Below, in pieces: positions 3,236 through 5,818 of a stretch of DNA of 64,000 nt. Both the position numbers and the translations under genes were made by a program. Position 1 is the stretch's first letter. Every line of letters begins with the position of its first letter. The notes under the pieces are model-generated. The model made no database searches and had not been told where the DNA came from. It saw only the letters and a program-made list of their open reading frames with translations. The stretch is from an uncultured Chloroflexia bacterium (GTDB lineage Bacteria; Chloroflexota; Limnocylindria; Limnocylindrales; CSP1-4), in contig CAWEYL010000001.1 of NCBI GenBank assembly GCA_963813335.1, forward strand, positions 704,001-768,000, written 5' to 3'.

Positions 3236-5818
3236 TTGTCTCACACGTTCGAGACGCAGATCGGTGGTCGCACGCTGACCATCGAGACCGGCAAGCTCGC
3301 GCGCCTCGCCGGCGGCGCCGTCACCGTCCGCTACGGTGACACCCTGGTGCTCGGCACCGCCAACCGCTCGGATCCCCGCCCGGGCCTCGACTTCTTCCCG
3401 CTCACGGTCGAGTTCGAGGAGCGCATGTACGCCGCGGGCAAGATCCCGGGCGGCTTCATCAAGCGCGAGGCGCGCGCGTCGGAGGCGGCCACCCTGGCCG
3501 CCCGCCTGACCGACCGCCCCATCCGCCCGCTCTTCCCCGAGGGCTACAAGGACGACATCCAGCTCGTCATCACCGTGCTCTCGACCGACCAGGAGAACGA
3601 GCCCGACGTGCTCGGCACGACGGCCGCCTCGGCCGCGCTGAGCATCAGCGAGATCCCGTTCGCGGGACCTGTCGGCGCCGTCCGCGTCGGCCGCATCAAC
3701 GGCGAGTTCGTGGTCAACCCCACCTACAGCGAGCTCGCCGAGTCGGAGCTGGACCTGATCGTCTCCGGTACCCGCGACGCGATCATGATGGTCGAGGCGG
3801 GCGCCAAGCTCCTGCCCGAGGACGTGATGGCCGAGGCCATCCTGTTCGGCCATCGCGCGCTGCAGCCGCTCATCGATATCCAGGAAGAGCTCCGCGCGGC
3901 CGTCGGCAAGGCGAAGAGCACCCCGTACCTCGAGCCGGGCACCGGCTCGGTGCTCGACTACACGAAGGCCGTCGCCGCGGGCGATACGTTCGTCGTGGTC
4001 GACGTCGAGACCACCGGCACGGACCCGAAGATGGCCGACCTCGTCGAGATCGCCGCGGTGAAGGTCCAGGGCGGCAAGATCGTCGACCGCTGGTCGACGC
4101 TCGTGAACCCGGGCCGGCCGATCCTCGGCCACCAGATGCACGGCATCACCGACGCGGACGTCAAGAAGGCCCCCAAGCCGGCCGACGCCGCGAAGGACGC
4201 CCTCAAGTTCATCGGCGACTCGCTGGTCGTGGGGCACTCGGTCGGGTTCGACCTCGGCTTCATCGAGGCCGCGCTCGGCGACGGGACGCACTTCGAGCAG
4301 GGCCGCTACCTCGACACCCTGGTCCTCGCCCGCGAGGGCTACCCGGACCTCGAGAACTACAAGCTCGGGACGCTGTCGAACTTCTTCGGTATCGAGCTCG
4401 CCCAGTCGCACCGGGCCGGCCCCGACGCCGAGGCGACCGCCAACCTGCTGATCTGGTTCGGGAACGACCTGCCGGGCCGCATCGCGGCCCTCAAGGCGGG
4501 GATCGCGGATTCGGTCCGGGCCAACCGGACCGGCGGCGACCCGAAGGCGATCCTCGAGGCCGCCCGCCGCGAGGCCCGCGTCTCGAAGGGCCTCTACAAC
4601 CTGCTCTTCAAGAAGACCTGCCGCGAGCTGGCCCTCGACGAGGGCATCCGGATGGACGGCCGCGGCCTGACGGAGCTCCGCCAGATCTCGGTCGAGGTGG
4701 GCCTCCTCCCGCGGGCGCACGGCTCCGGCCTCTTCACCCGCGGCGAGACCCAGGTCATGACGATCGCGACGCTCGGCGCGTCCTCGGACGTGCAGCGCAT
4801 CGACACGATCAGCCCCAAGACCGAGAAGCGCTACATCCACCACTACAACTTCCCGCCCTATTCGACGGGTGAGAACAAGCCGATGCGCGGCCCCAGCCGG
4901 CGCGACATCGGGCACGGCAACCTCGCCGAGCGGGCGCTCGTCCCGGTCCTCCCGGACCACGACGAGTTCCCGTACGTCATCCGCCTCGTGTCGGAGTGCA
5001 TGTCGTCCAACGGCAGCACCTCGATGGCCTCGACCTGCGGCTCCACCCTCGCCCTCATGGACGCGGGCGTGCCGATCAAGGCACCGGTCGCCGGTGCGGC
5101 GATGGGCCTCATCAGCGAGCCGGACGGCCGCTTCGTCGTCCTGACCGACATCCTCGGCAAGGAGGACTCGGTGGGTGACATGGACTTCAAGGTGACCGGC
5201 ACGCGGGACGGCATCACCGCCCTGCAGATGGACATCAAGGTCCAGGGCATCAACGAGGCGATCATCCGCAACGGCCTCAAGCAGGCCCTCGCGGCGCGCC
5301 TCGAGATCCTCGACAAGATGACCTCGGTCATGCCCGAGGCCCGTGTGGAGATGAGCGACTTCGCGCCGCGCATCATCACCATCAAGATCAACCCGGAGAA
5401 GATCCGCGAGATCATCGGCAAGGGCGGATCGATGATCCGCAAGATCCAGGAAGAGACCCAGACCGAGATCAACGTCGAGGACGACGGCACCGTGGAGATC
5501 GCGGCCGTCTCCGGCGAGAACTCGCGCAAGGCGATCGACTGGATCAACAGCCTGACCCGTGAGGTCGAGGTGGGCGCGCTCTACATGGGCAAGGTCACCC
5601 GCATCATGGGCTTCGGCGCCTTCGTCGAGATCATGCCCGGCAAGGAAGGCCTGGTCCGCATCGGCGAGCTCGCCGACTACCACGTTCCCACCGTCGAGGA
5701 CGTCGTGTCCGTCGGCGACGAGATCATGGTCGTCGTGATGGAGATCGACCGCCAGGGCCGCGTCAACCTCTCCCGCCGCGCCGCGATGCAGCGCCACCTG
5801 GCGAAGGATCCCGCCTAG
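3236..5818 (+). CDS. pnp: polynucleotide phosphorylase with an inserted DEDDh exonuclease domain
   Basis: FFPLTVEFEERMYAAGKIPGGF, RMDGR, HGSGLFTRGETQ, SNGSTSMAS, GDMDFKV, KH (IIGKGG) and S1 domains; TTG start after AAGGAGG; extra DVETTG...HSVGFD...HRAGPDA block. Confidence 0.97.
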   Translation: MSHTFETQIGGRTLTIETGKLARLAGGAVTVRYGDTLVLGTANRSDPRPGLDFFPLTVEFEERMYAAGKIPGGFIKREARASEAATLAARLTDRPIRPLFPEGYKDDIQLVITVLSTDQENEPDVLGTTAASAALSISEIPFAGPVGAVRVGRINGEFVVNPTYSELAESELDLIVSGTRDAIMMVEAGAKLLPEDVMAEAILFGHRALQPLIDIQEELRAAVGKAKSTPYLEPGTGSVLDYTKAVAAGDTFVVVDVETTGTDPKMADLVEIAAVKVQGGKIVDRWSTLVNPGRPILGHQMHGITDADVKKAPKPADAAKDALKFIGDSLVVGHSVGFDLGFIEAALGDGTHFEQGRYLDTLVLAREGYPDLENYKLGTLSNFFGIELAQSHRAGPDAEATANLLIWFGNDLPGRIAALKAGIADSVRANRTGGDPKAILEAARREARVSKGLYNLLFKKTCRELALDEGIRMDGRGLTELRQISVEVGLLPRAHGSGLFTRGETQVMTIATLGASSDVQRIDTISPKTEKRYIHHYNFPPYSTGENKPMRGPSRRDIGHGNLAERALVPVLPDHDEFPYVIRLVSECMSSNGSTSMASTCGSTLALMDAGVPIKAPVAGAAMGLISEPDGRFVVLTDILGKEDSVGDMDFKVTGTRDGITALQMDIKVQGINEAIIRNGLKQALAARLEILDKMTSVMPEARVEMSDFAPRIITIKINPEKIREIIGKGGSMIRKIQEETQTEINVEDDGTVEIAAVSGENSRKAIDWINSLTREVEVGALYMGKVTRIMGFGAFVEIMPGKEGLVRIGELADYHVPTVEDVVSVGDEIMVVVMEIDRQGRVNLSRRAAMQRHLAKDPA

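Follow-up and report, generated by a model that had tools for sequence, protein, structure and literature searches.

A polynucleotide phosphorylase with a DEDDh exonuclease domain between its RNase PH modules in a Chloroflexota lineage

The stretch of DNA analysed here, 64,000 nucleotides (nt) of contig CAWEYL010000001.1 from an uncultured Chloroflexota bacterium (assembly GCA_963813335.1), encodes a polynucleotide phosphorylase (PNPase) that contains a DEDDh (DnaQ-like) 3'-5' exonuclease domain between its two RNase PH modules. The whole stretch is termed the window and all positions are relative to it. The program-listed frame that holds the gene, pnp, is an open reading frame (ORF) of 892 amino acids (aa) at 3140-5818. 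The TTG codon at 3236 was chosen as the start because the homologues measure 845-866 aa and an aaggagga ribosome-binding site lies upstream; protein residues are numbered on the resulting 860-aa form. The rpsO gene is placed directly 5' of pnp, the rpsO-pnp gene order being kept. A preliminary description, made from the sequence alone, had proposed an 860-aa pnp after rpsO, and both its length and its position were borne out. The two genes and the parts of the fused protein are:

2846..3115, forward strand: rpsO (ribosomal protein S15), 89 aa, GTG start (Pfam Ribosomal_S15, E 2.4e-34)
3236..5818, forward strand: pnp with the DEDDh insert, 860 aa, TTG start, aaggagga ribosome-binding site ahead
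3236..3907, forward strand: first RNase PH module (PH1), residues 1-224 (Pfam RNase_PH and RNase_PH_C; model elements up to H210-223)
3908..3985, forward strand: linker and one helix before the insert, residues 225-250 (alignment against plain PNPases; model helix 237-248)
3986..4465, forward strand: DEDDh (DnaQ-like) 3'-5' exonuclease domain, residues 251-410 (PF00929, TIGR00573 and 2p1j matches)
4001..4018, forward strand: ExoI motif DVETTG, residues 256-261 (D256, E258)
4235..4252, forward strand: ExoII motif HSVGFD, residues 334-339 (D339)
4409..4441, forward strand: ExoIII motif HRAGPDAEATA, residues 392-402 (H392, D397)
4466..4645, forward strand: retained C-terminal helices of the PNPase all-alpha domain, residues 411-470 (hhalign; model helices 394-432, 436-447 and 451-469)
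4646..5335, forward strand: second (catalytic) RNase PH module (PH2), residues 471-700 (Pfam RNase_PH)
5375..5548, forward strand: KH domain (Pfam KH_1, E 5.9e-11)
5564..5779, forward strand: S1 domain (Pfam S1, E 4.9e-17)

The Pfam domains of the pnp product are two RNase_PH, two RNase_PH_C, KH_1 and S1, with RNase_T (PF00929) between the PH modules. The PF00929 match reaches 92.3 bits against a cut-off of 24 (E 6.5e-26), covers the profile from position 1 to 164 of 164 and lies at residues 253-405 of the 860-aa protein (285-437 in the numbering of the 892-aa ORF). The host protein scores as a PNPase with the curated models: NCBIfam TIGR03591 (polynuc_phos) matches with 936.5 bits against a cut-off of 525.05, in two stretches on either side of the insert, and PRK11824 with 934.2 bits against 471. 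The PH1-PH2-KH-S1 order is the one found by Pfam. The insert itself exceeds the DEDDh/DnaQ-like cut-offs, TIGR00573 (dnaq domain) giving 85.2 bits against 71.5. A complete all-alpha domain is not detected: PF03726 has no match at E <= 0.01 in the fused protein, whereas it matches 11 of 16 scanned plain full-length representatives at E <= 1e-4.

In 63 plain PNPases the stretch between the PH modules has a median length of 100 aa (range 87-124), whereas it measures 257-263 aa in 37 fused proteins, which thus contain about 160 extra residues. The C-terminal half of the inter-PH linker of plain PNPases is recognisable at residues 413-478 (hhalign probability 95.6, E 1.1e-8). Because hhalign finds this half only and PF03726 is undetected, it follows that within the all-alpha domain the DEDDh domain replaces the N-terminal half and the C-terminal helices are kept. 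The insert has a G+C content of 0.68-0.71, the same as its flanks. It is also predicted with confidence in an AlphaFold monomer model of the protein (mean pLDDT, the predicted local distance difference test, 91.9; pTM, the predicted template modelling score, 0.83). In this model the ExoIII helix continues as a single helix over residues 394-432 and is followed by two helices and then by PH2, which suggests a rigid mount for the DEDDh domain. Five basic residues of the retained helices (R428, R444, R445, K459 and R463) are invariant among 29 fused sequences; of the five, R463 alone is conserved in plain PNPases too. We infer that these residues may guide nucleic acid.

The catalytic residues of both enzymes were tallied over 149 fused proteins. 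D256, E258 and H392 are each kept in 149/149, D339 and D397 each in 148/149, and all five together in 147/149. The DEDDh subtype is given by the D-x-E of ExoI, the D of ExoII and the H-x4-D of ExoIII, all present. The residues of the PNPase site (S594, S596, D644, D650, K652, R555, R556 and H560) are found in 149/149, and most of them are invariant across 100 aligned PNPases; the roles of the individual PH2-site residues are presumably those established in E. coli. The inserts from one of the fusion-bearing families, referred to below as f4, are 43-47% identical to the window insert. The ratio of nonsynonymous to synonymous substitution rates (dN/dS) of the insert is below 1 in 10/10 pairs, with a range of 0.07-0.59. 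These results agree with most of the anatomy given in the preliminary description: the DEDDh domain does lie between the RNase PH domains, the Exo motifs with all acidic residues and the histidine are correct to the base, and PH2, KH and S1 are intact. The description had also set the insert where the helical domain begins. The extra residues are there, but they take the place of the N-terminal half of the all-alpha domain instead of standing beside it.

The same architecture is found in other genomes. The best 120 of 8000 scored homologues were examined; they are 845-866 aa long, 84-91% identical, and all contain PF00929 together with the PNPase domains, on contigs of up to 2.8 Mb. The source names on these close homologues are Chloroflexi, Chloroflexota and Candidatus Limnocylindrales, and their public annotations are either PNPase or 'DNA polymerase III epsilon subunit family exonuclease'. 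Three GTDB families of the class to which the bacterium belongs supplied loci for comparison (13 for f1, 2 for f2 and 12 for f4), and a colinear fused gene is present in 27/27, with 62-88% identity across about 857 residues. In two DNA runs and two RNA-library runs, short assembled contigs extend across the PH1/insert junction; the far (insert/PH2) side is spanned by one DNA contig at 4376-4707. The run evidence consists of short Logan contigs, in which depth, gaps in cover and low-support joints carry no meaning; the RNA-library contigs over the junction give a weak hint of pnp expression. Near-identical sequence was found in wetland and soil metagenome runs.

Two broken copies were observed. 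In a single-contig f1 genome (L063, G161:C1, about 2135-4837) the fused pnp is distributed over three overlapping frames, implying two frameshifts; this could be an assembly error or a pseudogene. In the representative P0248, good alignment blocks alternate with text that looks out of frame. A degenerate insert was considered for P0248 and rejected, because the alternating blocks point to a probably frameshifted gene call.

The distribution of the fusion was followed in a phylum sample of 401 genomes with a query of 141 aa spanning the junction. The query is matched end to end in 44/44 genomes of f1, f2 and f4 (own genome included) and in 0/357 other Chloroflexota. Six further matches cover the DEDDh part only; five of them belong to DinG-like helicases and the sixth to a GIY-YIG/UVR protein. 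In another Chloroflexota family, one DinG-like exonuclease-helicase (L064, G332:C5, 3-3674, reverse strand) is split by a LAGLIDADG-containing intein. Of the best 150 representatives at 50% identity, P0121 is the one that looks fused apart from fragments, namely P0122-P0125, P0146, P0194, P0218, P0234, P0242 and P0248. All 16 representatives of at least 800 aa were scanned, and PF00929 occurs only in P0121. The ESM Atlas clusters returned with RNase_PH and RNase_T are all from Chloroflexota. A fusion beyond the class is not indicated by the best 150 representatives or by the ESM Atlas clusters, no GTDB-wide architecture search having been made.

A PNPase tree was built without the insert columns and included 37 fused proteins. 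These form one clade with a support of 100, and since they do, the insertion probably arose once. The neighbours of the clade are the plain PNPases of two further families of the class, f3 and f5, and a plain representative of unknown origin (P0126). A second tree was made from 47 DEDDh domains. It contained 28 pnp inserts, 8 domains of DinG from f3/f5 and 5 others from the class, and other Chloroflexota contributed 5 domains of DinG and 1 linked to GIY-YIG; L061 was left out because its match covered only 96 residues. The inserts constitute one group (SH-aLRT 93), and its division into f4 and f1+f2 follows the taxonomy. The branch that joins the inserts to the DinG domains has a support of 6. 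Judged from sequence, the gene is a genuine, single-origin fusion that appears to be maintained by selection.

The families that lack the fusion carry the DEDDh domain on another protein. Plain pnp is present in 5/5 f3/f5 genomes checked, and the DEDDh domain of these families forms the N-terminal part of a DinG-like helicase about 890 aa long, as Pfam shows for two proteins. The class tallies cover 151 genomes, 145 of which are at least 90% complete. Eight unpublished genomes (G087, G096, G123, G106, G091, G112, G067 and G158) enter the tallies only and none was aligned; the PF00929 tally includes G087, G158 and G123. Helicase_C_2 matches occur in 21/21 f3 genomes and in 1/1 of f5, versus 1/69 of f1, 0/7 of f2 and 2/52 of f4. 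The own genome (81% complete) has no Helicase_C_2 match, and Pfam finds no helicase domain in the fused protein. When the f3 DinG-like protein was searched against five fusion genomes, the pnp insert alone was matched. PF00929 is found in 150/151 class genomes, with exactly one match in 121, although such matches are not strict copy numbers. In 5/7 of the small f2 genomes (1.0-1.4 Mb) a second PF00929 match stands beside the pnp insert, so the insert is not the sole DEDDh domain in f2. The class thus retains a DEDDh domain nearly always, usually as one match, on either DinG or PNPase.

The insert resembles the exonucleases of DnaQ, PolC and DinG. Among the best 25 of its 30 NCBIfam matches, the highest scores belong to DEDD/GIY-YIG proteins (153 bits), the N-terminal exonuclease of DinG (PRK08074, 134.7 bits), PolC (131 bits) and the dnaq domain model, and no RNase T or oligoribonuclease (Orn) model is present. 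The 11 Protein Data Bank sequence matches listed include the PolC exonuclease (2p1j, E 1.4e-24), DinG (8zef, E 7e-18), DnaQ, Cas2-DEDDh and ExoX, with epsilon matched weakly and no RNase T or Orn chain. The insert is therefore unlike RNase T/Orn, which the preliminary description had named beside DnaQ/PolC as members of the DEDDh group; the nearest models are those of DEDD/GIY-YIG, DinG, PolC and DnaQ proteins.

RNB, the domain of RNase II/R, has no match in any of the 151 class genomes (0/151), f3/f5 included, and is present in 10/10 bacterial control genomes; its absence across a class is unusual for bacteria. The insert as a fusion-specific compensation for the loss of RNase II/R was rejected, since the plain-PNPase families f3/f5 lack RNB as well. 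In the own genome no PF01612 and no RNase E/G were found, and the one RNase PH match (G000:C3:396122-396517, L003) lies inside a 684-aa open frame. An NrnA-like DHH/DHHA1 gene is placed directly 5' of truB, about 6 kb upstream of rpsO (G000:C1:699604-699867; L081, 760-1779). Its product has 339 aa and its best NCBIfam match is NrnA, whose cut-off of 350 is not reached by the 85.6 bits scored. Each of the four other genomes searched (from f1, f2, f3 and f4) has a DHHA1 match at a distance of 2.4-3.6 kb from pnp; these frames are of comparable length (356-576 aa) and are known by the DHHA1 match alone. The possibility that carrier genomes are without a nanoRNase, which the preliminary description had put forward for checking, is not supported, and the idea of the insert as a replacement for a missing nanoRNase is weakened by the NrnA-like gene beside truB.

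The neighbourhood of pnp in the window has further features. The spacer between rpsO and pnp is 120 nt long and contains, immediately 3' of the rpsO stop, one predicted structure:

3129..3151, forward strand: hairpin of 10 bp, G+C-rich, in the rpsO-pnp spacer (RNA fold)

The fold of 3110-3245 has -61.2 kcal/mol (z -2.85), and 1/200 shuffles is equally good. An Rfam search of the window gave no family match, the spacer hairpin included. The hairpin is possibly a terminator or a processing site, and it recalls the E. coli rpsO-pnp operon, which has terminator and processing hairpins. An RNase J gene is encoded at 10948-12579 on the forward strand (TIGR00649, 603.8 bits), about 5 kb 3' of pnp, so that two major RNA-decay enzymes are near neighbours. 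The rpsO-pnp pair has large STAND/LuxR-type regulators on both flanks, at 3-2825 (reverse strand) and 5935-8889 (forward strand). One of them shows AAA_16 only, its C-terminus lying beyond the window. In the other, AAA_16 is combined with TPR and a GerE helix-turn-helix.

On a slender balance of probability, the fused protein is predicted to be a dual phosphorolytic and hydrolytic nuclease of RNA 3' ends. The activity of the DEDDh domain, RNA as its substrate and the cooperation of the two sites are the parts of this reading that we infer from the sequence. The KH and S1 domains and the RNase PH ring would capture single-stranded RNA (ssRNA) and degrade it by phosphorolysis, and the DEDDh site would add a metal-dependent, phosphate-independent hydrolytic trimming. 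The fusion may have taken over the job done by the DinG-linked DEDDh domain in the sister families. RNA 3' ends are preferred as the substrate because the host protein is dedicated to RNA, because no other processive hydrolytic 3' exonuclease was found in the genomes, and because Listeria DinG is described, in an excerpt of PMC12774634, as an exoribonuclease acting on unprocessed rRNA.

Several observations weigh against the dual-nuclease proposal. Among characterised proteins, the insert is closest to exonucleases of DNA, namely the PolC proofreader, DnaQ and DinG. According to PMC12525004, B. subtilis DinG prefers single-stranded DNA (ssDNA) and leaves linear ssRNA uncut with Mg2+. The f3/f5 DinG domains group with those of other Chloroflexota (support 81), apart from the inserts. 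In BLAST, the class's own DinG domains (53-81 bits) score below the top matches from outside the class (106-117 bits), which are DinG-like proteins from other families and a GIY-YIG/UVR protein. A direct transfer from the class's own DinG to pnp is thus not supported by either the tree grouping or the BLAST scores. The DEDDh pentad has two exceptions, D397H in L048 (G113) and D339T in P0008, which may be sequencing errors or local losses of activity. Finally, the insert usually evolves faster than the core, with a dN/dS of 0.57-0.59 in two window pairs versus 0.06-0.26 for the PH domains; selection on the insert appears purifying but relaxed relative to the core.

The main rival is a DNA or R-loop function, in which the insert would replace the repair and replication-stress role of a lost DinG exonuclease-helicase. 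Activity on ssDNA and a part in double-strand-break repair are also known for bacterial PNPases. The kinship of the insert to DNA exonucleases and its distribution complementary to the DinG-like helicases fit this role, and B. subtilis DinG is reported, again in PMC12525004, to degrade ssDNA and the RNA strand of hybrids and to remove R-loops. The host protein, however, retains the RNA-binding and phosphorolytic residues and the rpsO-pnp arrangement, and the helicase motor of DinG did not come along. Moreover, the work of Listeria DinG on rRNA (PMC12774634, excerpt) means that kinship to DinG does not amount to a role on DNA. A DNA or R-loop function is considered unlikely.

A clean-up of nanoRNA, in which the insert would degrade the 2-5 nt limit products of PNPase as Orn/REXO2 do, is quite improbable. 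It is in keeping with the pnp insert being the sole PF00929 match in most fusion genomes, and with human mitochondrial PNPase pairing functionally with the DEDDh oligoribonuclease REXO2, as an excerpt of PMC7261184 describes. The NrnA-like gene by truB and the DHHA1 matches near pnp in four other genomes speak against it, as does the absence of RNase T/oligoribonuclease models from the best 25 of 30 NCBIfam matches. The sister families with plain PNPase show no additional need for a nanoRNase.

A mainly structural or regulatory role, with the insert as a gate or docking platform and catalysis dispensable, would agree with the faster evolution of the insert and with the 2/149 sequences that lack one acidic residue. 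The insert also lies in the all-alpha domain, a module reported to regulate the access of phosphate and nucleoside diphosphates (NDP) to the active site (PMC6181284, in excerpt). The retention of five residues in 147/149 sequences, across inserts only 43-47% identical, is hard to explain without catalysis, and this role is judged very improbable. Less credit still is given to the editing of PNPase's own heteropolymeric, NDP-made tails, with the 3' end partitioned between two sites as in proofreading polymerases. The reversibility of PNPase (PMC6181284, in excerpt) and the PolC proofreading domain as the closest solved relative would suit such editing; the argument is one of analogy, and the plain-PNPase sister lineages do without it. 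An assembly chimera, named in the preliminary description as a refuting outcome, or an annotation artefact can practically be dismissed: no support for it was found, two broken copies (G161 and P0248) notwithstanding, and it is opposed by the 120 homologues with both domain sets, the 27/27 loci, the 44/44 genomes and the independent contigs over both junctions.

The predicted dual nuclease can be compared with several known systems. With the canonical bacterial PNPases (E. coli, Caulobacter, Streptomyces and M. tuberculosis) it shares the PH1-linker-PH2-KH-S1 plan, the phosphorolytic residues and the rpsO-pnp order, and Foldseek matches the model to canonical PNPase chains with E 1e-53 to 7e-73. 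It differs from them in the DEDDh residues added, in the replaced half of the all-alpha domain and in the undetected PF03726; the solved PNPase chains in the Foldseek listing measure 730 aa or less. DinG-type exonuclease-helicases (of Bacillota and of f3/f5) have a DEDDh domain of the same subfamily (8zef, PRK08074), and in most genomes of the class the single PF00929 match stands on either PNPase or DinG. In the fused PNPase, on the other hand, there is no helicase, the domain is internal and not N-terminal, its partner is an RNA phosphorylase and the inserts form their own tree group. PolC, which provides the best solved sequence relative, likewise has its DEDDh domain inserted inside a larger nucleotidyl-transfer enzyme; the host enzyme is a different one, and PolC works on DNA primer ends in the replisome.

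The eukaryotic RNA exosome combines an inactive PH ring with the hydrolytic Rrp44 and the DEDD-family Rrp6. The likeness lies in a ring of PH domains together with a hydrolytic 3'-5' exonuclease, and by analogy the fusion may work similarly. The protein is not a member of the exosome: its ring keeps the phosphorolytic sites, and its hydrolase is covalently inserted and of the DEDDh (DnaQ) type. For human mitochondria, the excerpt of PMC7261184 pairs PNPase with REXO2, an Orn-type DEDDh enzyme. The two are separate proteins, and REXO2/Orn belong to a dimeric nanoRNase subfamily unlike the insert. A full-text literature search found no description of a PNPase-DEDDh fusion, consistent with the earlier view that the architecture is uncharacterised. 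Both domains are well known, and their combination and placement are new.

A bolder extension of the dual-nuclease proposal, which we regard as tentative and somewhat doubtful, draws on the exosome analogy. The fused protein would be a one-polypeptide bacterial counterpart of the exosome, whose PH ring hands 3' ends between the phosphorolytic sites and the rigidly mounted hydrolytic DEDDh sites. This might let RNA decay and rRNA surveillance pass obstacles or low phosphate without RNase II/R, and the core DinG-type job in these bacteria would be RNA surveillance and not DNA repair.

To our knowledge, PNPase is usually regarded as having one and the same domain plan in organisms from bacteria through to human mitochondria. 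A conserved lineage with a second nuclease site inside the all-alpha domain breaks this uniform picture and offers a natural experiment on what this poorly understood domain tolerates and does. The residues to mutate are already defined, and the sister families provide natural controls in the form of their plain PNPase and DinG-like protein. The fusion also provides an argument that ties DnaQ/DinG-type exonucleases to the metabolism of RNA 3' ends and that bears on the debate over DNA or RNA as the target of DinG. The protein is a possible bacterial analogue of the exosome-style pairing of a PH ring with a hydrolytic nuclease. The Chloroflexota homologues and the wetland and soil runs make it an enzyme of a widespread environmental group in which no RNase II/R was found, and where phosphate-independent trimming would consequently matter.

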